Source of the DNA: an uncultured Chitinophagaceae bacterium
GTDB lineage: Bacteria > Bacteroidota > Bacteroidia > Chitinophagales > Chitinophagaceae
Direction: 5' to 3'
Assembly: GCA_903907815.1 (NCBI GenBank)
Contig: CAIVPM010000035.1
Location: 3,776-67,775, forward strand
Length of the DNA stretch: 64,000 bases
Shown here piece by piece: positions 187 to 62,465 of this stretch. Position 1 is the stretch's first letter. Each line of letters opens with the position of its first letter. The notes beneath the pieces are model-generated. The model saw nothing but the letters and a program-made list of their open reading frames with translations. It had not been told where the DNA came from and ran no database searches. Made by a program: the position numbers and the translations under genes.

Positions 187-1725
187 ATGAACAATAACGA
201 AACAAAAGGGATATGGAAAGTTATAGGTGCCTCCTCCCTTGGTACCTTAATAGAATGGTACGATTTTTACATCTTTGGTAGTCTTGCTACAGTTATTGCA
301 AGCCAGTTTTTTCCTAAAACGAACCCAACTGCTGCCTTACTTTCTACCTTGGCAACCTTTGCTGCAGGTTTTATAGTAAGACCTTTTGGTGCGTTGGTTT
401 TTGGTAGACTAGGCGATTTAATTGGAAGAAAACATACCTTCCTGCTTACTTTAGTATTAATGGGAGGCTCTACATTCCTTATAGGTTGTGTGCCTAGTTA
501 TGAAAGTATTGGTTTTCTGGCACCTATCTTAGTATTAATACTCCGTCTTTTACAAGGCCTTGCTTTGGGTGGTGAATATGGAGGTGCGGCTACCTATGTT
601 GCAGAACATTCTCCTAACCATAGAAGAGGGTACTTTACTTCCTGGATTCAAACTACTGCAACACTAGGTTTATTTATTTCTTTGGGTGTAATTCTACTTA
701 CCCGTCATAGTCTTGATGCTGATGCAGCAAAGTCAATCGCTAAGTTCAATGACTGGGGCTGGAGAATTCCTTTCTTATTATCAGCAGTACTGGTAGTGGT
801 TTCCATTTATATCAGATTGAAAATGAAAGAATCTCCAATCTTTTCAAAGTTAAAATCTGAAGGAAAAACATCAACTAATCCACTAAAAGAAAGCTTTGCG
901 CACAAAGCAAATCTAAAGATGGTATTACTGGCATTGTTTGGTGCTACAATGGGTCAAGGTGTTGTATGGTATACAGGACAGTTTTATGCTCAGTCTTTTA
1001 TTGAGAATGTATGTAAAGTTGATTTCGATCAATCCAGAACAATGATTATCTGGGGTATCCTTTTTGCAACACCATTCTTTGTTGTTTGGGGTTCTTTGAG
1101 TGATAAAGTTGGTAGAAAATGGATTATGATTCTTGGTATGTTGATTGCTGTTGTTACTTATAAATATCTATTTACGCAGATACTAAATATTACTGATGCA
1201 AAAGCTAAAGTAGAAATTGTTGATAAAAGAGAGGTAAAACCTACGCTTTCACTAATTAAAAACTCTACAGATTCTTTACGAAAAGTAGTTACTAAAACAT
1301 ACTACGAAGATGGTATGAAGATGGTGGAAACAAAGACCGATACAGTGTACTCTGCTATAGGTAAAAAAACAATCAAACCTGTGGTAGCTGTTGCTAAAAC
1401 TTTAGGAGATAGTGATTACTGGAAAATTGTAGGAATAGTATTTATTCTAATTTTCTATGTAACTATGGTATATGGTCCAATAGCTGCATTCTTAGTAGAA
1501 TTATTCCCTACCAAAATCAGGTATACCTCTATGTCTTTACCTTATCATATAGGTAATGGAGTATTTGGTGGATTAACGCCATTTATTGCTACTTTATTCA
1601 CTACAATTTATACCAATGATAAAACTGTTGGTTTAATGTATCCAATTGTTATTGCTACATTATGTTGTGTGATAGGTGCATTATATATTCGTAACAGAAT
1701 TGATCCTGAAGTAGAGGGCGTTTAA
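187..1725 (+). CDS. MFS transporter, metabolite:H+ symporter (MHS)-like, with a large hydrophilic insertion
   Basis: Multi-TM MFS pattern. Loop motifs GRLGDLIGRKHTF and SDKVGRKW. An approx. 80-aa non-hydrophobic insert lies at aa ~336-412. Confidence 0.8.
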   Translation: MNNNETKGIWKVIGASSLGTLIEWYDFYIFGSLATVIASQFFPKTNPTAALLSTLATFAAGFIVRPFGALVFGRLGDLIGRKHTFLLTLVLMGGSTFLIGCVPSYESIGFLAPILVLILRLLQGLALGGEYGGAATYVAEHSPNHRRGYFTSWIQTTATLGLFISLGVILLTRHSLDADAAKSIAKFNDWGWRIPFLLSAVLVVVSIYIRLKMKESPIFSKLKSEGKTSTNPLKESFAHKANLKMVLLALFGATMGQGVVWYTGQFYAQSFIENVCKVDFDQSRTMIIWGILFATPFFVVWGSLSDKVGRKWIMILGMLIAVVTYKYLFTQILNITDAKAKVEIVDKREVKPTLSLIKNSTDSLRKVVTKTYYEDGMKMVETKTDTVYSAIGKKTIKPVVAVAKTLGDSDYWKIVGIVFILIFYVTMVYGPIAAFLVELFPTKIRYTSMSLPYHIGNGVFGGLTPFIATLFTTIYTNDKTVGLMYPIVIATLCCVIGALYIRNRIDPEVEGV

Positions 1726-1756
1726 TATTTATAACAAACAAAATAAATTCAACTAT

Positions 1757-2020
1757 ATGAATAAGTTAAAGAGATATGCTGGAATTATCTGGATCATTTT
1801 AGGTCCTTTAGCTATACACTATTTGATGGCTACAGCGGAGAGTGAAATTGCTAAAAAACCAGTAATAGATACACAAATACAATGGGGAGTTTTCCTTACC
1901 ATATTCTATCCTATTGTTATTGGTTTTATCCTTTTCGGTTTATATGCTCTGGAAGGAAACTACGATCACATTCCTGAATCAAGTGCAGAAATAGATGATT
2001 ACGATGTAAAACCATTGTAA
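1757..2020 (+). CDS. small membrane protein, unknown function
   Basis: 87 aa with two hydrophobic helices (IIWIILGPLAIHYL, VFLTIFYPIVIGFILFGLYAL). Starts 31 nt after the MFS stop, same strand. Confidence 0.45.
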   Translation: MNKLKRYAGIIWIILGPLAIHYLMATAESEIAKKPVIDTQIQWGVFLTIFYPIVIGFILFGLYALEGNYDHIPESSAEIDDYDVKPL

Positions 2021-2034
2021 GAATAATTGATCAC

Positions 2035-2079
2035 AGGATAGTCTCTTTATATAACATTAATTTATAAAGAGACTATCCT
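2035..2079 (+). terminator. perfect 17-bp stem hairpin (terminator or attenuator candidate)
   Basis: AGGATAGTCTCTTTATA (2035-2051) pairs with TATAAAGAGACTATCCT (2063-2079) around an 11-nt loop. The trailing T tract is weak (TTATTC). Confidence 0.45.
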
Positions 2080-2084
2080 TATTC

Positions 2085-2309
2085 ATGCCATATATGATTA
2101 GTAAGAAGAAAACATCCAAGCTGATTTTTATTGCTGTCTTGTTCTTAATGTTATTCAGTTTTCCTTTTATAAAGATGATGAATAAAGATTCCTTTATTGG
2201 TCATTTCCCCCTACTTTACTTTTATATCTTTTTCATCTGGTTACTAGTTATATTTATTATAGCAGTAGTAGTAGAAAGAAGAAGAAAAATACCGGCTGCT
2301 GATGAGTAA
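2085..2309 (+). CDS. small two-helix membrane protein, translationally coupled to the sensor kinase (CbrX-like arrangement)
   Basis: 74 aa and hydrophobic. Its stop TAA (2307-2309) overlaps the kinase ATG (2302-2304) in the sequence ATGAGTAA. Confidence 0.5.
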   Translation: MPYMISKKKTSKLIFIAVLFLMLFSFPFIKMMNKDSFIGHFPLLYFYIFFIWLLVIFIIAVVVERRRKIPAADE

Positions 2310-5001
2310 TCTGGTCATCATATTAAGTTCCATATTTTATTTAATTTCCCTATTTGCAATAGGGTATTATGCCGAAGTGCGTGCCAGACTTAAGAAGAGC
2401 ATTATCAATAATCCGTATATATATTCTTTGTCATTGGCCGTGTTCTGTACTGCATGGACTTTCTTTGGAAGCGTTGGAAGAGCAACTGTTACTGGCCCTG
2501 AATTTCTGTTTATTTATATAGGCCCTACATTACTTGCTCCTTTATTTATAGTATTGCTGAGAAAAATTATCAGAATATCCAAGACCCAGAGAATTACCAG
2601 TATTGCCGATTTTATTTCTACCCGTTACGGCAAGAATATCTCCTTAGGAATAATAGTTACACTACTATGTGTGCTGGGTATTATTCCTTACATAGCTATT
2701 CAATTAAAAGCTATTAGTAGTAGTATTGAAATATTGAATGGCACTATCAATCAGACAAATAACAACTTCAATATATTGGAGGATACAACATTCTATATAG
2801 CCATGGGGCTTGCGGCTTTTGTAATCCTTTTTGGAACAAGAACTATCGATGCTACCGAAAAGCATGAAGGACTGGTAGCTGCAATAGCTTTCGAATCTAT
2901 TGTAAAGCTTATTGCATTTATATCCGCTGGTCTGTTTGTTACCTATTTTCTCTTTGATGGTTTTGGTGATATTATGCAGAAAGCTGCCGCTGATAATCAC
3001 TTGCAACAACTCTTTACTTTTAAAGGGGGCAATATGTATTTTCAAACGTTTGCCTTAATGTTTTTATCTATGATGGCAGTGCTATTTCTACCCCGTCAGT
3101 TCCACCTTTCAGTAGTAGAAAATATCGAGGAAAGTCACTTGGTAAAAGCTACCTGGCTATTTCCTCTATATCTTTTTGTCATCAATATTTTTGTAATTCC
3201 CATTGCTTTTGGTGGGGCATTAATTTTCCACGGTCAGCATATTAATCCTGATACCTATGTACTGGCATTGCCTATGCATTCGGGTAATAAGTTCCTTGCA
3301 TTGCTGGTGTATATAGGAGGCTTTTCTGCTGCCGGGAGTATGATTATAGTAGAAACAATTGCACTGGGTATTATGATCAGCAATCAGATTGTAATGCCGC
3401 TGTTGCTTGCTTTTAAAAAGTTTAAAATTAATATAGATAAGAATTTCAGTACCATACTTTTATTCAATCGTAGAGCAAGTATTGTAGCTATCATTTTCTT
3501 CGCTTATCTGTATGATAAATTTATTGCAGAAAAATATTCACTGGTTTCCATAGGCCTTATTTCTTTTGCTGCAGTAGCACAGTTTGCTCCTTGTATTATT
3601 GGTGGTATTTACTGGAAACAAGCAAATAAAAAAGGCGCTGTTGCTGGGATACTGTTAGGGTTTACTGTCTGGTTTTATACTTTAATATTTCCTTCTATTA
3701 CCGGACATTTCTTTGATGCAGTAAATCAAAATGGTCTCTTTGGAATTGCTATGCTTAAACCTACTTCCTTGTTTGGTTTAGATGGGTTTGATACTGTTAC
3801 CCACGGATTCTTCTGGAGCATGTTTTTTAATACACTTGCCTTTATCAGTATTTCGCTTACTACTGAAAAGGAAACAGATGAGTTTTATCAGGCCGAAATG
3901 TTTGTAGATGTATTTAAATATTCCCGTCAGTCGGCCGAAGATTCTATTGCCTGGAGGGGTACTGCTTATATACCCGATTTAAAAGTTTTATTAAACAACT
4001 TTATTGGTAAAGAAAGAACCGATACTATACTGAATAATTATGCTAAAAAGAAAAATATCAATATTAATACTACTACAAAAGCTAACCCTGCACTGGTAAA
4101 CTTTTCGGAAAGAATACTGGCAGGTGCTATAGGTTCTGCCTCTGCAAGAATTATGATAAAGAGTGTAGTAAAAGAAGAAGAACTTAGCATGACCGAAGTG
4201 TTGAAAATACTACATGAAAGTCAGATGATGAAGGAGACCAATAAAGAGCTTCGTAAGAAATCGAATGAGTTACAGAAGGCAACCAATCAGTTACAGAAAG
4301 TTAACGAACAGCTGAAGCATATTGATGAAATGAAAGACGAGTTTTTATATACCGTCACACATGAACTTCGTACACCGCTTACTTCTATCAGAGCGCTGAG
4401 CGAGATAGTACACGACAATCCTGATTTGCCCGACGAAATGAAGAACGAATACCTTGGTGCTGTGATAAAAGAAACACAGCGATTAAGTTATTTAATTACA
4501 CAGGTATTAAATCTGGAACGTTATGAAAGCGGTAGAACAAAACTAAACATTTCTAATGTTGATATTGCAGCACTTTTGTATGGTACTGCCGATAGAGTAA
4601 AGTCGCTTATTGCCGAAAAAGGAATTAAGCTGGAGTTTAAAATACCTTTCAATATGTCTGCAGTAAAGGGGGATGATGACTTGTTGAATCAGGTGTTTTA
4701 CAACCTTATTTCCAATGCAGTAAAACATGCTGAAAGTATAATTAATGTATCGGTACATACTTCTGACGATACGGTGCTTATACAAGTAATGGATGATGGA
4801 AAGGGTATTGCAGCAGAAGTACATGAATTGATTTTTGATAAGTTTTTTCAGGCAAAGAATCAGACTTTAAAGAAGCCCGAGGGTAGTGGTCTGGGATTGG
4901 CTATCTGTAAGCGCATTATAGAAATGCACAATGGTAAAATATGGGTGGAAAGTGAAGTTGATAATGGAGCCACTTTTAAAGTAGAAATACCTATAACATA
5001 A
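2302..5001 (+). CDS. sensor histidine kinase with N-terminal sodium:solute symporter (SLC5/SSF) domain, CbrA/CrbS-like
   Basis: About 520 aa of polytopic SSF-like membrane domain, then a STAC-like linker and a coiled coil (ELRKKSNELQKATNQLQKVNEQLK). H-box FLYTVTHELRTPLTSI. ATPase boxes NLISNAVKH, DDGKGI, GSGLGLAICK. No C-terminal receiver. Confidence 0.85.
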   Translation: MSNLVIILSSIFYLISLFAIGYYAEVRARLKKSIINNPYIYSLSLAVFCTAWTFFGSVGRATVTGPEFLFIYIGPTLLAPLFIVLLRKIIRISKTQRITSIADFISTRYGKNISLGIIVTLLCVLGIIPYIAIQLKAISSSIEILNGTINQTNNNFNILEDTTFYIAMGLAAFVILFGTRTIDATEKHEGLVAAIAFESIVKLIAFISAGLFVTYFLFDGFGDIMQKAAADNHLQQLFTFKGGNMYFQTFALMFLSMMAVLFLPRQFHLSVVENIEESHLVKATWLFPLYLFVINIFVIPIAFGGALIFHGQHINPDTYVLALPMHSGNKFLALLVYIGGFSAAGSMIIVETIALGIMISNQIVMPLLLAFKKFKINIDKNFSTILLFNRRASIVAIIFFAYLYDKFIAEKYSLVSIGLISFAAVAQFAPCIIGGIYWKQANKKGAVAGILLGFTVWFYTLIFPSITGHFFDAVNQNGLFGIAMLKPTSLFGLDGFDTVTHGFFWSMFFNTLAFISISLTTEKETDEFYQAEMFVDVFKYSRQSAEDSIAWRGTAYIPDLKVLLNNFIGKERTDTILNNYAKKKNININTTTKANPALVNFSERILAGAIGSASARIMIKSVVKEEELSMTEVLKILHESQMMKETNKELRKKSNELQKATNQLQKVNEQLKHIDEMKDEFLYTVTHELRTPLTSIRALSEIVHDNPDLPDEMKNEYLGAVIKETQRLSYLITQVLNLERYESGRTKLNISNVDIAALLYGTADRVKSLIAEKGIKLEFKIPFNMSAVKGDDDLLNQVFYNLISNAVKHAESIINVSVHTSDDTVLIQVMDDGKGIAAEVHELIFDKFFQAKNQTLKKPEGSGLGLAICKRIIEMHNGKIWVESEVDNGATFKVEIPIT

Positions 5002-5194: not shown

Positions 5195-7486
5195 ATGACA
5201 AAGAATCAGCACAAAGTATTGGTAGTGGACGATGATCCATACATATTGATGTCTCTGGAGTTTTTGATGAAAAAGAATGGGTACGATGTGCTCATTGCCC
5301 GTAATGGTACCGAGGCATTAAACATTATTAATGCATCACCTTTACACCTTGTGTTGCTCGATATCATGATGCCCGATGTGGATGGTTATGCTATTTGTAA
5401 ACATATAAAGAATACGCCTGCTTTAGCAGATATTAAAGTAATATTCCTATCTGCAAAAACAAAGGATTCCGACATTAAAAAAGGCTACGAACTGGGGGCC
5501 GATTTATTCATTACCAAACCTTTTAGTACCCGCAATCTTATTCAGCAGGTGGAGGGGGTATTAACCAAAGTAAAAGAAGCGCATCGCAATATTTATCAGG
5601 AAGAATACTTTAAGAGCATTAACAGCTCCGAACTTTTCTGGAGAGAGAAAGCGAAGGAGATAGACTGGTTCGAATTTCCTGAAAACATTTTAACCAAAGA
5701 AGAAAACAATCTGTATCGCTGGTACAAAGGCGGCAAGCTAAATACAGCGCATCTATGTCTGGATTACCATGTAAAGAATGGCAGAGGCAATCAGACGGCT
5801 CTTATTTATGATTCTCCGGTAACAAAAACCATTCGTAAATATTCTTATTCCGAACTGACCGATGAAGTTGCAAGACTGGCTGGTGGATTACAAAAACTTG
5901 GTATTGTAAAAGGCGATACAGTGGTTATTTATATGCCAATGATTCCGCAGGCTTTAATGGCTATGCTGGCCTGTGCCCGTATAGGTGCAGTGCATAGTGT
6001 AGTGTTTGGTGGCTTTGCCCCTCACGAACTTTCTGTGCGTATAGATGATGCAGAACCAAAGGCCATTATCACTGCCACTTATGGTATAGAAGTAGATAAA
6101 AAGATTGCTTACAAACCATTGGTCGATCATGCTATTATGGAGGCTTATCATAAGCCAAACCATGTAATTGTTTATCAGCGCGAAGGCATGATGTGCTATA
6201 TGGATGAAGAGCGCGATGTAGACATGCAACAATTGATGCAGGAATCTGCTCCGGCCAGCTGTGTGCCGGTAGATGCTACCGATCCTTTATACATATTATA
6301 TACTTCTGGTACTACTGGAAAACCTAAAGGAATTGTTCGCGATAATGGTGGCCATGCAGTGGCTTTAAAGTATAGTATGAAGAGTATTTACAACGCCGAT
6401 CCGGGCGATGTATTCTGGGCTGCCAGCGATGTAGGTTGGGTAGTAGGCCATAGCTATATTGTATACGCTCCTTTACTGCAGGGGTGTACAACGGTACTCT
6501 TTGAAGGTAAGCCAGTAAAAACACCCGATGCTGGAGAGTTCTGGAGAGTGGCGGCCGAGCATAAAGTAAAGGTGATGTTTACCGCACCTACTGCCATAAG
6601 AGTAATTAAAAAAGAAGATTCCGATGGACTTTTATTCAAGAATAAAGACCTCTCTGCTTTGCAGTATTTGTTCCTTGCAGGCGAACGCTGCGATCCCGCT
6701 ACCCTTCACTGGGTAAGCGATTTGCTGGGCAAGCCAGTAATAGATCATTGGTGGCAAACCGAAAGTGGATGGCCAATGCTGGGCATTATGCAGGGACTGG
6801 AAAAGATGACTTCCAAATCGGGGTCTGCAGGTAAACCTATCTGCGGTTTCGATGTACAGATAATAGAAGACGATGGCACGATTATTGAAAACGATGAGGA
6901 AGGTTTTGTTACCGTAAAACTTCCTTTACCGCCTGGTTGTCTGCCTACCTTATGGAAGGATGATGATGACTGGTTTAAACAGTCTTATTTATTCAAGTTC
7001 CCAGGCTACTATCTTACCGGCGATGGCGGCTATCGCGACAAGGAAGGGTTCTTCCATATCATGGGTAGGGTAGATGATGTAATTAATGTATCGGGACATA
7101 GATTAAGTACCGGCGAAATGGAGGAAATTATCTCGCATCATCCCGCTATTGCCGAGTGTGCTGTAATAGGTATTGCCGATCCTATTCGCGGTCAGCGCCC
7201 TATAGGTTTGTTTGTAATGAAAGATAATCACCACAATACCGAGGAAGAACTGGAGCATGAATTAGTGTTGTTGATGCGTGATAAAATTGGTGCCGTAGCG
7301 TTCTTTAAAACAGCAGTACTGGTTAAGCGTTTACCCAAAACAAGAAGTGGTAAAATACTGCGTAAAACTATGCGCTTCCTGGCCGATGCTGTACCCTTTA
7401 CCGTACCATCTACTATCGACGATCCAATAATTCTGGACGAGATTAAAGAGGTACTGATCAGAAGAGAAATAATGAAGGCGGTTTAG
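5195..7486 (+). CDS. response-regulator receiver domain fused to PrpE/Acs-type acyl-CoA synthetase (propionate/acetate--CoA ligase-like)
   Basis: aa 1-~125 form a receiver: DD at 13-14, acceptor D56 in VLLDIMMPDVDG, FLSAKT, ITKPF. aa ~130-763 are collinear with E. coli PrpE. Matching motifs are HSVVFGGFA, YTSGTTGKPKG, DVGWVVGHSYIVYAPL, FTAPTAIRV, DVINVSGHRLST, LPKTRSGKILR and IDDP. Confidence 0.85.
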   Translation: MTKNQHKVLVVDDDPYILMSLEFLMKKNGYDVLIARNGTEALNIINASPLHLVLLDIMMPDVDGYAICKHIKNTPALADIKVIFLSAKTKDSDIKKGYELGADLFITKPFSTRNLIQQVEGVLTKVKEAHRNIYQEEYFKSINSSELFWREKAKEIDWFEFPENILTKEENNLYRWYKGGKLNTAHLCLDYHVKNGRGNQTALIYDSPVTKTIRKYSYSELTDEVARLAGGLQKLGIVKGDTVVIYMPMIPQALMAMLACARIGAVHSVVFGGFAPHELSVRIDDAEPKAIITATYGIEVDKKIAYKPLVDHAIMEAYHKPNHVIVYQREGMMCYMDEERDVDMQQLMQESAPASCVPVDATDPLYILYTSGTTGKPKGIVRDNGGHAVALKYSMKSIYNADPGDVFWAASDVGWVVGHSYIVYAPLLQGCTTVLFEGKPVKTPDAGEFWRVAAEHKVKVMFTAPTAIRVIKKEDSDGLLFKNKDLSALQYLFLAGERCDPATLHWVSDLLGKPVIDHWWQTESGWPMLGIMQGLEKMTSKSGSAGKPICGFDVQIIEDDGTIIENDEEGFVTVKLPLPPGCLPTLWKDDDDWFKQSYLFKFPGYYLTGDGGYRDKEGFFHIMGRVDDVINVSGHRLSTGEMEEIISHHPAIAECAVIGIADPIRGQRPIGLFVMKDNHHNTEEELEHELVLLMRDKIGAVAFFKTAVLVKRLPKTRSGKILRKTMRFLADAVPFTVPSTIDDPIILDEIKEVLIRREIMKAV

Positions 7487-7489
7487 GAT

Positions 7490-7560
7490 TAGTGGATTGG
7501 CTGATTGAATACAAATTGATTGTAAATAGATAGGAAAACTAATAGAGAGAAGTGTGCAGA
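7490..7560. repeat. mosaic intergenic repeat module (GGATTAG/GGATTGG words + GAATACAAAT core, reverse orientation)
   Basis: GGATTAGTGGATTGGCTGATTGAATACAAAT starts immediately after the stop of the 5195-7486 gene, followed by AGAGAGAAGTGTGCAGAGAA. It parallels 61297-61358. Confidence 0.6.
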
Positions 7561-7691: not shown

Positions 7692-7950
7692 AGAGGGCAT
7701 AAATGTTTTTTTCTTTGGAGTTGACGTTGCTTTTATAGACGTAGGAGTTGCTTTTTCTTAAATTGACGTTGCTCCTGTTGGGATAGACGTTGCTTTTGGA
7801 GACGTAAATGTTTTTTTCGTTGGAATAGACGTTGCTTTTAGGGACGCAGGAGTTGCTTTTTCAAAAATTGATGTTGCTTCTGTTGGGGTAGACGTTGCTA
7901 TTGGAGACGTAAAAGTTGATTTTGTTGGGATAAACGTTGCTTTTTTAGGG
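7692..7950. repeat. non-coding tandem array, 105-bp super-repeat made of five ~21-bp subunits (core GACGTTGCTTTT)
   Basis: GACG-type sites at 7723/7828/7933, 7738/7843, 7765/7870, 7786/7891 and 7801/7906 are each exactly 105 bp apart. No ORF of 60 aa or more. Confidence 0.9.
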
Positions 7951-8024
7951 ATATATCTTTCGATGAAAGCTAACTTTATTATAATTACTCAATAATAAGG
8001 CTCAGATTACTTTGATTGCAAAAG

Positions 8025-8207
8025 GTATGTATTTGCCTTTGCGTTAGTGCCAGCAGGGAATATCCTTTTGCTACCACCCCTGAACATGCTTTAAAATTGC
8101 ACCTAATACCAGTGGTAGCAAAAGATAGGAAAGGCTGGAACGGCCGCTTGCGGAACGCCCAAAAAACTAATTGACAATTGATGATGGATAATTGATAATG
8201 AATACAA
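8025..8207 (+). repeat. approx. 180-bp mosaic element with conserved arms and a variable internal hairpin; inverted copy at 28784-28957
   Basis: GCGTTAGTGCCAGCAGGGAATA (8041-8062) and GATAGGAAAGGCTGGAACGGCCGCTTGCGGAACGCCCAAAA (8124-8164) are matched in reverse complement at 28924-28945 and 28829-28870. The internal 13-bp stem is 8065-8077/8112-8124. The ends are GTATGTATTTG and GAATACAA. Confidence 0.85.
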
Positions 8208-15586: not shown

Positions 15587-16348
15587 ATGAAAGTAATTAT
15601 TATTGAAGATGAAATACCAGCTGCAAAAAGGTTTGCAAAACTTATTACTAATGTGGATGAAAGTATAGAGATTGTTGCCAGATTCGATAGCATAGAATCG
15701 TCGGTTAAATACTTGCAGACTCAACCCATAATAGATTTGATATTTATGGATATTCAGTTAGCGGATGGTTTGTGTTTTACCATATTTGAACAAGTAAATA
15801 TTGCTACTCCCGTTATATTCACTACAGCATTTGACAAATACACCTTAAAAGCATTTAAAGTAAATAGTGTAGACTATTTATTGAAACCAATAGATGAAGA
15901 AGAACTATCAGTTGCAATTGAGAAATATAATCAAATTCATAAGAAAGAAATTACTAATCAATTTGATAAGTTTTCTGGTCTGTTAAATGATCTGGGTGTT
16001 GCAAAATACAAAGACCGTCTGATTATTAAAAGAGGGAAACAGATAAGCTTTATAAAGACGGAAGATATTGCCTGTTTTTATGCCAATGGTAAGTTGTGTT
16101 ATATAGTAGACAATAATAATCAAAAATATTTAGCAGAAGATAATCTTAGCAATCTATCAATGAAGCTGAATCCTAAGAACTTTTATCGGATAAACAGAAC
16201 AATGATTATCAATATTGCTGCTATTAAAAATACTGTTATCTGGTTGGGAGGAAGATTGAAAGTTGAATTACAAATTCCTACCAATGAAGAAACTATAGTT
16301 AGTCGCGAAAGGGTAGGTGGATTTAAGGAATGGCTTGATGGCGAATAA
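15587..16348 (+). CDS. LytTR-family response regulator
   Basis: Receiver (IIIEDE, FMDIQLADG, LLKP) plus a C-terminal LytTR domain (FYRINRTMIINI...VSRERV). Starts 4 nt after the kinase. Confidence 0.85.
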   Translation: MKVIIIEDEIPAAKRFAKLITNVDESIEIVARFDSIESSVKYLQTQPIIDLIFMDIQLADGLCFTIFEQVNIATPVIFTTAFDKYTLKAFKVNSVDYLLKPIDEEELSVAIEKYNQIHKKEITNQFDKFSGLLNDLGVAKYKDRLIIKRGKQISFIKTEDIACFYANGKLCYIVDNNNQKYLAEDNLSNLSMKLNPKNFYRINRTMIINIAAIKNTVIWLGGRLKVELQIPTNEETIVSRERVGGFKEWLDGE

Positions 16349-28783: not shown

Positions 28784-28957
28784 TTATTTGTATTCATTAT
28801 CAATTATCCATTTTCCATTATCAATTAATTTTGGGCGTTCCGCAAGCGGCCGTTCCAGCTCTTCCTATCTTTTTTTCACATGTATTTGTATTAAATCCCT
28901 CCTTTGGAGGGTTGGGGAGGCTGTATTCCCTGCTGGCACTAACGCATATACAAATAC
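28784..28957 (-). repeat. inverted copy of the 8025-8207 mosaic element
   Basis: TTATTTGTATTC + ATTATCAATTATCC words; TTTTGGGCGTTCCGCAAGCGGCCGTTCCAGC (28829-28859); internal hairpin CCCTCC-TTT-GGAGGG (28897-28911); TATTCCCTGCTGGCACTAACGC (28924-28945); ATACAAATAC end. Confidence 0.85.
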
Positions 28958-28987
28958 ACCCATGTAATGCTGTATAAAATTTGTTTC

Positions 28988-33087: not shown

Positions 33088-33360
33088 GCATAGTCTGTAC
33101 ACTACAAAGCATAGTCTATTCACTGCATAGCATAGTCTGTTTACAAAGGAGCATGTTCTTTACAGAACCACAATGGTCTTGTTATGTAAGCTGATGATGC
33201 TTTTTGCTAAGTAGCATAGCCTATACAGTACTAAGATGGACTTGTTCTTTAAACGGATAGTGCTTTTCAATAAGCAGCATAGTCTTTACAGTACTTTAAT
33301 GGTCTTATTCTTTACATCGATGTAATTGTTCACTTAAGAGCATGTTAATAAATTAAATAG
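33088..33360. repeat. non-coding tandem array, strict 21-bp phase (unit GCATAGTCTnTnCAnnnnAAA, 63-bp A-B-C super-repeat in the second half)
   Basis: Unit starts at 33088, 33109, 33130, 33151, 33172, 33214, 33235, 33256, 33277, 33298 and 33340. All differ by multiples of 21. Confidence 0.85.
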
Positions 33361-39664: not shown

Positions 39665-39765
39665 TTGAATACAAGTGCTAATTGTTTAATGGCTAAATTG
39701 TCAAATTACTAATCTGTGTTTGTATTCATTAGCACATTTGCTAATTATCAAATTAGCTAATTAGA
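39665..39765. repeat. mosaic intergenic repeat (back-to-back cores with ATTAGC/CTAATT words)
   Basis: GAATACAAGTGCTAATTG (39667-) and GTGTTTGTATTCATTAGCACATTTGCTAATTATCAAATTAGCTAATTAG (39716-39764). The latter runs into the stop codon of the 39761-40321 gene. Confidence 0.8.
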
Positions 39766-45979: not shown

Positions 45980-46204
45980 ACATTAAAATGTTTTGTAAAC
46001 GATAAAAGTAATAGAATTTATCATATTGAATAATTAAATCGGCACTTTAAGAAACTTTTAATGGAGTTTAAAGTTTCTTTTTTTAATAATTTCTAAAAAA
46101 GTAGGAACAGTAAGTAATACATTTGCAACTGTTTTTTAAACCCGGATTTTGAAGTAGGAATCGTTATGAAAGCTACAAATGCAATAAAGACAAGTGTTTA
46201 AGCA

Positions 46205-46263
46205 GATTTTTTGTTTGCAGGCATAGTAAACTATGGCAATAACAAAAAATCAAGCAAATACTG
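46205..46263 (+). repeat. 59-nt hairpin-forming insertion flanked by an 11/12-nt direct duplication inside the yebC upstream region
   Basis: GTGTTTAAGCA (46194-46204) and GTGTTTGAAGCA (46264-46275) flank ATTTTTTGTTTGC-AGG-CATAGT-AA-ACTATG-GCAATAACAAAAAAT. The insert is absent from the copy at 32957-33064. Confidence 0.6.
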
Positions 46264-46334
46264 GTGTTTGAAGCATTTGGAGTTTGTAATAGAATCTCTA
46301 CTGCAAATTCTGGATAAAATAGATAAATACAATT

Positions 46335-47130: not shown

Positions 47131-47205
47131 GGTCTCGTAGTACAATGGATAGTATAAGAGTTTCCGAAGCTCCAGATACAAGTTCGATTCTTGTCGAGAC
47201 CACCA
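47131..47205 (+). tRNA. tRNA-Arg (anticodon CCG), encoded CCA end
   Basis: Hand-folded cloverleaf. Acceptor GGTCTCG/CGAGACC, D stem GTAC/GTAT, anticodon loop TTCCGAA (CCG at 47164-47166), T arm ACAAG-TTCGATT-CTTGT, discriminator A + CCA. There is one A-C mismatch at the top of the anticodon stem. Confidence 0.8.
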
Positions 47206-47329: not shown

Positions 47330-47625
47330 GTAGTTTTAGAAGCTGTTTGCTTACACACTTATTAGGATAATACCTGCAAACAATATTGGTAAAATAACAA
47401 ATGATAGGCAGAATATGATAAACGATCGGTTCAATACTCAAAAGACCAGCTCCAATACAACAAATGATAGGCAGAATACGATAAACAATCGGGTCAACAC
47501 ACAAAAGACCAACTCAAACACAACAAAGGATAAGCAGAATACGATAAATGATCGGTCTAATACGTAAAAGACCAGTGCAAACACAACAAAGGATAGGATA
47601 AATACACAAAAGACTATATCCAGAT
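47330..47625. repeat. non-coding tandem array, 63-bp unit (3 x 21) in about 4 copies plus a degenerate leading copy
   Basis: AACAAATGATAGGCAGAATA... begins at 47396, 47459, 47522 and 47585, exactly 63 bp apart. The last copy is internally shortened. Confidence 0.9.
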
Positions 47626-60786: not shown

Positions 60787-61296
60787 ATGGCAGAAATCAG
60801 CAGCAATAATGCAGCAAAAGGAAAGCATAAAAGAAAAGTCCTTTCTACCAGGGTCGACCTTACCCCAATGGTCGACCTTGGTTTTCTACTCATCACCTTT
60901 TTCATTATCACCACCACCTTGTCTCAGCAGCATGCTATGAAACTGAATCTACCGGTAGATGGTTCCCCTACTACCACCGCTGTTAGTAAAACAGTAACGC
61001 TGATATTAAAGGATAATAATAGCGTAGACTATTACAACGGCAACGAGGTAGACAAGGTTGCTACCATTTCCTTTAAGGATAATGGCCTGAGAAATATGTT
61101 GATGAATAAAAAGAAAGCCATCAAACAATCCTGCGGTTCCGATACGGGCACCACCGTTATCATCAAGCCTACCAGCCTGTCTACTTACAACAATGTGGTA
61201 GCCGCGCTAAACGAGATGCCGGTAAATAACATAAGGAAATATGTACTCACCGATCTTACCAAAGAAGAAGTAAAGCTGCATCCGGAGTATCAGTAA
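60787..61296 (+). CDS. exbD: ExbD/TolR-family biopolymer transport protein
   Basis: VDLTPMVDLGFLLITFFI TM segment and a periplasmic domain. Confidence 0.8.
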   Translation: MAEISSNNAAKGKHKRKVLSTRVDLTPMVDLGFLLITFFIITTTLSQQHAMKLNLPVDGSPTTTAVSKTVTLILKDNNSVDYYNGNEVDKVATISFKDNGLRNMLMNKKKAIKQSCGSDTGTTVIIKPTSLSTYNNVVAALNEMPVNNIRKYVLTDLTKEEVKLHPEYQ

Positions 61297-61500
61297 TTAA
61301 CGGATTAGCGGATTGGCGGATTGGCGAATTAATACAGCTTAACGCTAATACAAATACAATCACCGCAGAGAAAAGAGGGAAGGAGAAACTGGTAATCTGA
61401 AACGGGCAATCCATCAAGTAGCTTATTTATTATTGTATTGGTATTCATTAGCACATCAGCTAATTAGCACATTAGCTAATTACTGCATTTTCCCTTTACT
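61297..61500. repeat. two mosaic repeat modules facing away from each other
   Basis: CGGATTAGCGGATTGGCGGATTGGCGAATTAATACAG...AATACAAATACA (core 61347-61358) + CACCGCAGAGAA. Then TGTATTGGTATTCATTAGCACATCAGCTAATTAGCACATTAGCTAATTAC (61434-61486). Confidence 0.85.
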
Positions 61501-62061: not shown

Positions 62062-62360
62062 GGGGGAGTAAATAGTGTTTTAATGGGAATGGTCTAAGAT
62101 TTCCTGGGAATAATCAGAGTTTGGTTGGGAATGAACTAAGTTTACTTGGGAATGATCTAAGTTTAGTTGGGGGGACATAGTGTTGGGGTGGGAATGGCAT
62201 ACGTTTTATTGTTTTGAGTGAAAGATTACTTGGGAATAATCAAAGTTTGGTTGGGAACTGTATAAGATTTATTGTCGGTAGCATGAGTTTTCCTGGGAGG
62301 CGAAAGTGTTTGATTGGGAGCGGTATAAGATTTATAATTGGGCGTGTATGATTTTTTTGA
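62062..62360. repeat. non-coding tandem array, 14 units with strict 21-bp phase (consensus GGGAATnnnnTAAGwTTnnTT)
   Basis: Unit starts at 62085, 62106, 62127, 62148, 62169, 62190, 62211, 62232, 62253, 62274, 62295 and 62316 are exactly 21 apart; the next is at 62340. No ORF of 60 aa or more. Confidence 0.9.
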
Positions 62361-62465
62361 GAAGGATATTGTTTTTAAGTTCAGCAAGTATTAAGTAATA
62401 GGTTGTAAGTATTAAGTAAACAGCCAATACAAATTCTTCATAAATAGGGACGTTATTTTGTAAAC

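Follow-up and report, generated by a model that had tools for sequence, protein, structure and literature searches.

Array 1, a run of 21-bp direct repeats in the 64,000-nucleotide stretch of DNA analysed here (the window), is probably (we put the chance at roughly 0.6) a fast-evolving non-coding minisatellite that forms the 5' module of a mosaic intergenic region and changes by whole 21-bp units. The source genome (G000) is a fragmented MAG of 3.93 Mb in 511 contigs, with 35% GC, and its close relatives are MAGs from freshwater lakes.

Array 1 is built of 21-bp units within a 105-bp repeat

TRF, the sequence itself and autocorrelation place array 1 at 7700-7953 on the + strand, as about 12 units of 21 bp carrying a 105-bp (5-unit) higher-order repeat. 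Between 7700 and 7944, TRF reports a period of 105 in 2.3 copies with 87% matches, 0% indels and a score of 364, in agreement with the 105-bp super-repeat of about 2.4 copies described in an earlier, sequence-only reading of this DNA, and the sub-periods of 21 and 42 bp extend to 7953. When the array is laid out in rows of 21, 12 of 12 units are in register, and the 300 bp upstream of position 8027 match themselves at 0.50, 0.53 and 0.54 at lags of 21, 42 and 63, compared with 0.28 +/- 0.04 at other lags. The earlier reading had taken a GACG-type word for the 21-bp periodic core. Sites of this type do lie at 7723, 7738, 7765, 7786, 7801, 7828, 7843, 7891 and 7906, but not at the two remaining listed positions, 7870 (GATG) and 7933 (AACG), and their spacings alternate 15/27/21; the word that truly holds the 21-bp step is GTTGCTTTT instead (7726, 7747, 7768, 7789, and so on). 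Every unit includes a T4-7 tract, and most contain ACGTTGCT.

On the + strand, array 1 has more G than C and more T than A, as its earlier description as T/G-rich implied. The same description spoke of no ORF of at least 60 aa; none of even 30 aa or more overlaps 7692-7950 on either strand, and all six frames contain stops. Array 1 is thus a head-to-tail, non-coding repeat with a unit inside the 10-100 bp range of minisatellites (VNTRs). Its sequence is single-copy in the genome (a singleton in an all-against-all BLAST of 199 arrays) and has no match in Rfam. We also considered a CRISPR array and rejected it, given that the variable positions recur with the 105-bp period and that the unit is merely 21 bp.

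The gene upstream of array 1 (5195-7486) encodes a 763-aa fusion of a receiver domain with an acyl-CoA synthetase, and the other flanking gene encodes an LpxH-type metallophosphoesterase. Right after the stop codon of the former, a run of short words read from the sequence, GATTAGTG GATTGGCT GATTGAAT, ends in the core-like GAATACAAAT (7487-7516, + strand); word-run-plus-core modules of this type follow a dispersed element, E, genome-wide. The next gene starts 380-630 bp from array 1, and a copy of E of about 180 bp intervenes. This copy, E1 (8027-8207, + strand; BLAST, nhmmer and covariance model), is located 83 bp 3' of the array, so that the order around array 1 reads word run and core after the upstream stop, array, E1, and word run and core again.

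The 21-bp period is shared by unrelated arrays across the genome

The sequence-only reading was to fail if repeat periods showed no genome-wide excess at multiples of 21, and the excess is strong: among 695 tandem arrays detected by TRF in the whole genome, sharp peaks stand at periods 21, 42, 63 and 84 (101, 57, 22 and 23 arrays), with further arrays at 105, 126 and 147. The off-peak periods 20, 22, 41, 43, 62 and 64 account for 17, 5, 9, 2, 2 and 0 arrays. The same scan returned no arrays at periods 28, 35 and 49, so the period rule is not simply one of multiples of 7. Besides the 17 arrays of period 20, there are 7 isolated young two-copy duplications of that period.

The three further arrays with a 21-bp phase that had been noted in the window (33088-33360, 47330-47625 and 62062-62360) were all recovered by TRF, with periods of 21/63, 63 and 21/42, respectively. 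Array 2 (33088-33332, no strand assigned) has period 21 at 33088-33140 and then 63 at 33161-33332, and belongs to a four-member sequence family that includes C91:7709-8189 and C214:8404-8637. Array 3 (47396-47597, likewise unstranded; period 63 = 3 x 21, 3.2 copies) lies 193 bp from a tRNA gene (47131-47202) and has a paralogous array at C451:13860-14124. Array 4 (62084-62340, + strand) has periods 21 and 42 (TRF 62084-62171) and the unit TGGGAATGATCTAAGTTTACT, and is followed by a 7-bp word run at 62386-62418.

The window holds further runs of 7- or 8-bp words at 8168-8204, 28791-28827, 39728-39764, 61296-61331 and 61447-61482. These runs use TAATTGA, ATTAGCAA and similar words, and are usually the 3' tail of an E element ending in the core GAATACAAATACA; with TRF periods of 7, 14, 8 and 16, they represent a second period class of about 240 arrays genome-wide, distinct from the 21-bp class. 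At 46132-46326 (G000:C35:49907-50101) the window also contains a distinct palindromic MITE about 185 bp long, whose ends read TTTAACCCAGATTACGC...GCGTAATCTGGGTTAAA. Some of its roughly 30 copies adjoin 21-bp arrays.

In total, about 199 non-coding arrays at multiples of 21 make up about 33 kb, or 0.85% of the DNA. A contig end is found within 450 bp of 76 of these arrays, and 19 abut one, indicating that the true array load is higher and that 21-bp arrays break short-read assemblies. All-against-all BLAST placed 106 of the 199 in 34 sequence families and left 93 as singletons, giving 127 sequence components, a number that makes a single amplified family an unlikely source of the 21-bp peak. 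A cryptic common origin of the whole class was likewise rejected, as the best circular matches between unit consensuses outside the obvious families equal those of shuffled units.

In three genomes of the genus, array density is 15-19 per 100 kb, with 26-32% of arrays at multiples of 21; five sister genera have 1.5-9 arrays per 100 kb without a peak at 21, relatives having been sampled rather than scanned whole for tandem-repeat density. Among the genera sampled, the 21-bp arrays are confined to this one.

The arrays have little in common beyond their length. No 4-mer is shared among them, GACG-type words are not enriched, and TTTG, GACG-type words and A/T-tracts all occur at or below the expectation for random intergenic 21-mers; an A/T-tract is present once per unit in 31% of arrays, versus 45% of random 21-mers. 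By our own ORF-heuristic gene calls, the share of intergenic gaps with an array is 4.5% for convergent, 4.9% for divergent and 4.0% for tandem gene pairs, and this equal frequency indicates that they do not track promoters. A reading of the units as arrayed promoters was rejected as well: TTTG is found in 4/4 arrays of the window, but once per unit in only 14% of the class, below background, and the Bacteroidota -7 box TAnnTTTG is scarcer in arrays (0.18 vs 1.07 per kb).

Arrays change by whole units

Within a sequence family, higher-order periods vary (e.g., 42, 63, 84 and 126 in a 12-member family), which shows that the 21-bp register is ancestral and that the larger blocks arose locally in whole units. 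Array 1 has such a hierarchy: a 21-bp unit diverged into five variants, and the block of five, 105 bp long, was duplicated afterwards.

Neither of the two congeneric genomes (G001 and G002) has a counterpart of array 1. No syntenic locus was found there or in other MAGs, where its flanking genes are not adjacent, and metagenome scans yielded no orthologue. At a sister locus, however, the register is kept. In G000:C354 and the congeneric G002:C330, gene end, array and E are all retained at the orthologous position; the two arrays are about 75% identical and in register, and their sole internal length difference is one 21-column gap. This array behaves as a minisatellite, changing by whole units. 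In G001, a different 21/42-bp array (G001:C235:1-460) stands before the lpxH-like gene, whose protein is 99% identical. That array again lies 5' of an E element, of another subfamily and in the opposite orientation, and homology to the window stops 78 bp before the lpxH-like start codon.

Columns conserved within units are not significantly clustered (mean z 0.4, with 7% of arrays at p < 0.05 by permutation; array 1, z = 1.71, p = 0.10). Differences scattered in this way would be expected from drift followed by block duplication, and not from a row of binding sites. An iteron-like layout of conserved core and variable spacer was convincing by eye when arrays were set in 21 columns, yet was rejected, its clustering not exceeding permutation. 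Indels are modestly depleted in 21-bp arrays (1.2%, vs 2.2% in other repeats). We also looked to the birth spectrum of repeats as evidence for a ruler and set it aside, as isolated young two-copy duplications are too few (7 at period 20, 8 at 21 and 28 at 16).

Element E resembles the Flavo-1 motif

The segment 8027-8207 was recognised as a dispersed repeat when relatives were searched with the 1-kb region. E1 comprises a 5' core ATGTATTTGCC; the closing helix P1, formed by GCGTT (8041-8045) with AACGC (8154-8158); P2 and P3; a long variable hairpin CTTTTGCTACCAC...GTGGTAGCAAAAG; a CUUG-loop hairpin; and, at its 3' end, a 7-bp word run (8168-8204) with the 3' core GAATACAA (8200-8207). BLAST detects about 65 close copies in the genome, and iterated nhmmer 120 in several subfamilies; a covariance model matches the window at 8039-8163 with 119 bits. 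A second copy in the window (28788-28958, - strand) has arms 76% identical to those of E1 and a swapped internal hairpin, and carries no 21-bp array upstream.

The helices of E are conserved through compensatory change. The closing helix covaries (GCGTT/AACGC, GCGC/GCGC, GCGCG/CGCGC, GGGTG/CACCC), the second helix is wholly different between subfamilies (TGCCAGC/GCTGG-A, TTGCAGC/GCTGCAA, GGGCTAT/ATAGCCC), and copies have in common an ATCC-T-run/A-run-GAT helix continuing into the variable hairpin, and a small 3' hairpin with CUUG, UUCG or GAA-type loops. In an 18-sequence alignment, 86.9% of positions in the four helices (30 pairs) are paired, versus 72% in shuffles and 41-49% with slid partners; 19 pairs changed on both sides, a number reached in 0 of 500 shuffles. 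Between the orthologous E copies of the C354 and C330 loci (L192 and L178), the apical hairpin is wholly swapped and P2 has changed in a compensatory manner (GTGCCAGC/GCTGGA vs GTTGCTGC/GCAGCA; alignment A4, columns 800-900), so that the tip is replaceable and the arms are kept.

Such conserved secondary structure with covariation is what marks the Flavo-1 RNA motif, Rfam RF01705 (Weinberg et al. 2010, PMC2864571). Using a covariance model (R1), E was found in 20 of 121 genera of the family, mostly as a single copy of 84-92 nt; it is multi-copy in few genera, with 9-17 copies in three genera besides this one, and in one of the other genomes (G068) the expanded hairpin is the 3' one instead of the central one. 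The R1 E-values are rough, and its seed included one sequence from another genus, although the link to that genus was first made by an nhmmer profile built from this genome alone. Nine single-copy homologues from other genera, reached with that profile and with R1, score 46-64 bits against the RF01705 gathering cut-off of 42, and the homologues from other genera share with Flavo-1 the P1 closing helix, the ATCC-U-run/A-run-GAU helix and the small 3' hairpin. The window copy stays below the RF01705 cut-off, with no Rfam match even at E <= 10. It differs from RF01705 in a 50-60-nt hairpin insertion, and the element also in its 13-bp inverted cores, word-run tail and about 120 copies. Judged by structure and scores, E is thus a divergent, hairpin-expanded relative of Flavo-1, not a model-level member. 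Beside the single-copy Flavo-1 homologues of two other genomes (G039 and G075; loci L148 and L150, ~1700-3084) there is a long stretch without a plausible ORF, in which an Rfam search at gathering cut-offs over these loci matched no family except Flavo-1 itself.

Many E copies are bracketed by the 13-bp inverted cores, with TGTATTTGTATTC on the 5' side in 40 and GAATACAAATACA in about 19, 20-80 bp past the 3' end, and runs of 7- or 8-bp words follow. Inverted cores and word-run tail together make E MITE-like in this genus. A link to a transposase was rejected: Y1/RAYT transposases are absent from this genome yet common in array-free relatives, and TnpB is present as a single copy.

Arrays lie on the 5' side of element E

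In G000, a non-coding array with a period that is a multiple of 21 occurs within 400 bp of 29 out of 120 E copies: 28 on the 5' side, none on the 3' side and one overlapping E. In G002, 11 of the 18 copies for which upstream DNA is available have a 5' array and none a 3' one, and the 3' side carries only word runs of 7, 8, 14 or 16 bp. Combining the two congeneric genomes, 39 arrays lie 5' of E and 0 lie 3' (one-sided binomial, ~2e-12). In line with this polarity, the 300 bp before E match themselves most strongly at lags of 21, 42 and 63 (mean 0.347 vs 0.285), and no such peak is present downstream. Moreover, 22 of 28 E-adjacent arrays are richer in G than in C on the E strand (p = 0.004).

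E-adjacent arrays belong to many sequence families, with 7 to 290 bp separating array from E. Arrays and E share intergenic gaps beyond the expectation for length-matched gaps (odds ratio 2.9, p = 0.002), though the link is not obligatory: E lies within 400 bp of only about 20% of arrays, and an array is found at about 27% of E copies. Furthermore, 20 E copies in two other genera have no arrays at all, leading us to reject arrays as an intrinsic part of Flavo-1-like elements. The modules face either way relative to neighbouring genes, and their order is 21-bp array, spacer, E with 13-bp inverted cores, and 7/8-bp word run. This fixed polar order identifies array 1 as one module of a mosaic intergenic repeat region.

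Explanations for the 21-bp rule

Under the minisatellite reading, units would be gained and lost via slipped-strand mispairing or unequal recombination, and the two-helical-turn period may be held since a structural DNA reader tolerates or favours only a 21-bp step. This reader could be a protein that coats DNA or belongs to the nucleoid, or else the helix itself through its bend or phase; the array would then not be a set of sequence-specific regulator sites. The reading has its difficulties. Simple slippage accounts for a kept period, but not for why about 93 unrelated arrays all have 21 bp. Shared descent would predict drift of the period by indels, but few arrays have period 20 or 22, and indels are depleted only modestly. 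Finally, a neutral minisatellite model does not predict the 39:0 polarity relative to E.

We next weigh the other explanations, in descending order of credence. The arrays could be architectural DNA, in which a two-turn unit sums small bends within a single plane or presents the same face throughout to a nucleoid protein indifferent to sequence, and the resulting curved or coated tracts organise the chromosome or insulate neighbouring genes. A-tracts spaced in phase with the helix bend DNA, and the T4-T7 tract in each unit of array 1 would be expected to do so; the period is locked while sequence is free, arrays are indifferent to gene orientation, and the C354/C330 array held its register through species divergence. 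Nevertheless, we consider this explanation unlikely. A-tract curvature as a class-wide property was rejected on the A/T-tract counts given above, no candidate protein was identified, and the polarity with E is left unexplained; confinement of the arrays to one sampled genus makes a general nucleoid protein an improbable reader.

A more speculative proposal, which we hold to be quite unlikely, is that E acts as a polar nucleation point, from which a filament, nick or recombination tract would run 5' in two-turn steps, making and maintaining 21-bp arrays of arbitrary sequence. In a related version, E, or a protein or nick at E, would trigger 5' repair or recombination tracts that duplicate DNA in 21-bp quanta, akin to the polarity shown by human minisatellites beside a recombination hotspot. 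The strict orientation in two genomes, the G > C polarity of arrays relative to E, the many unrelated families that E adjoins and the co-occurrence in gaps all speak for this version. Even so, we regard it as improbable: most arrays have no E within 400 bp and most E copies no array, genera with 9-17 E copies have no arrays, the spacers vary, and no enzyme candidate emerged, the Y1 transposase being absent and TnpB single-copy.

Alternatively, array (5', 21-nt modules) and E (3' structured domain) may form one non-coding transcript, a sponge or scaffold. The order and strand polarity of array and E are fixed, and E has RNA-like UUCG, CUUG and GNRA-type loops on covarying stems. Yet the Bacteroidota promoter motif is not enriched upstream of arrays or E, G-U versus A-C mismatches in the E helices have no strand preference, and arrays are as common between convergent genes as elsewhere. 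In Flavobacterium psychrophilum, moreover, Flavo-1 matches are found in sense or antisense orientation to transcripts, and many have no transcription (PMC9723704). We therefore give a repeat RNA very little credence.

The sequence-only reading had put forward the arrays as possible landing pads or titration sinks for proteins such as LytTR regulators, each 21-bp unit providing a 9-bp half-site for a LytTR or other oligomerising protein, with dimers stacked on one face of the helix. Known LytTR sites (AgrA, ComE, PlnC/D), which are pairs of conserved 9-bp direct repeats 12-13 bp apart, do share the 21-bp centre-to-centre spacing, ACGTTGCT occurs in most units of array 1, and of the 15 LytTR genes in the genome one lies in the window (16040-16336). 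Against this, there is no motif common to the arrays, no clustered conserved block across the class (nor significant clustering in array 1), and no tracking of promoters, arrays being as frequent in convergent gaps, where no promoter is expected. Array 1 is not kept in congeneric genomes and is not promoter-proximal, ending 380 bp before the start codon with E between. Nor do LytTR gene counts track array presence: the 15 genes here compare with 27, 32, 32, 14 and 17 in sister genera, and in the genera sampled for tandem repeats, which include the ones with 14 and 17 LytTR genes, arrays are sparse and period 21 shows no peak. The landing-pad reading is thereby removed as an explanation of the class, is without specific support at array 1, and in our estimate is highly improbable.

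Lastly, decayed coding repeats (pseudogenes of a protein with 7-residue repeats) can be dismissed: 21 is divisible by 3 and about half of the 21-multiple arrays lie in open frames of at least 90 aa, but these frames (90-215 aa) coincide with the repeat itself, as is the chance expectation for short units, real long genes hold only about 20 arrays, array 1 has no ORF, and some 200 independent pseudogenes of unrelated sequence are implausible.

Relation to known repeats and significance

Bacterial minisatellite or VNTR loci, such as mycobacterial MIRU, are intergenic head-to-tail repeats of tens of bp. The arrays described here are likewise non-coding and intergenic, change by whole units at the C354/C330 locus and form higher-order repeats in place. 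However, VNTR units vary in length by locus or belong to one sequence family, whereas here about 127 sequence groups share an exact length. Plasmid origin iterons (R6K, P1, RK2) are direct repeats of about 19-22 bp, similarly spaced two helical turns apart. Unlike iterons, the arrays have no rep gene or origin context (array 1 is flanked by the receiver::acyl-CoA synthetase fusion and the LpxH-type metallophosphoesterase), number about 200 per chromosome, are unrelated in sequence and have no conserved binding core.

BOX elements of Streptococcus pneumoniae and BIMEs of E. coli are mosaic intergenic repeats, in which boxB is tandemly iterated and REP forms hairpins. A fixed module order, here array - E - word run - core, is common to all of these, but boxB and REP modules are homologous among copies, whereas the iterated module here shares only its length. 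Within the same phylum, BrickBuilt and 464/PgRS of Porphyromonas gingivalis are minisatellite-bearing MITEs with a tandem repeat of 23 nt or 41 nt (PMC4596501). They resemble the present system in being intergenic and in joining a tandem repeat to MITE-like ends; there, the repeat lies inside the terminal inverted repeats and has one sequence in all copies (PMC4596501). Here, by contrast, the 13-bp inverted cores bracket E and leave the array outside, the sequence differs per copy (that of array 1 being unique in the genome), and the period is 21 bp. None of the VNTRs, Porphyromonas gingivalis MITEs, BOX or BIME elements has a shared unit length without a shared unit sequence, and a full-text literature search found no description of a 21-bp length rule or of an array-E orientation rule. 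What is new is that E is recognised as a Flavo-1 relative, that arrays and E obey a 39:0 orientation rule, and that an orthologous locus differs by a single unit; new too are the negative results for the LytTR, promoter, core-spacer and A-tract ideas.

Bacterial tandem repeats are usually explained locus by locus, and in this genome about 200 arrays come under one two-turn length rule. That one rule spans unrelated arrays suggests a cause that reads length and ignores sequence. The strict orientation beside an amplified Flavo-1 relative offers a concrete handle on the period rule. Flavo-1 is a widespread Bacteroidota motif that has been without known function since 2010; if the proposed polar nucleation at E were true, it would give this orphan motif a function at the level of DNA, and would amount to a sequence-blind 'molecular ruler' for the formation of bacterial repeats.
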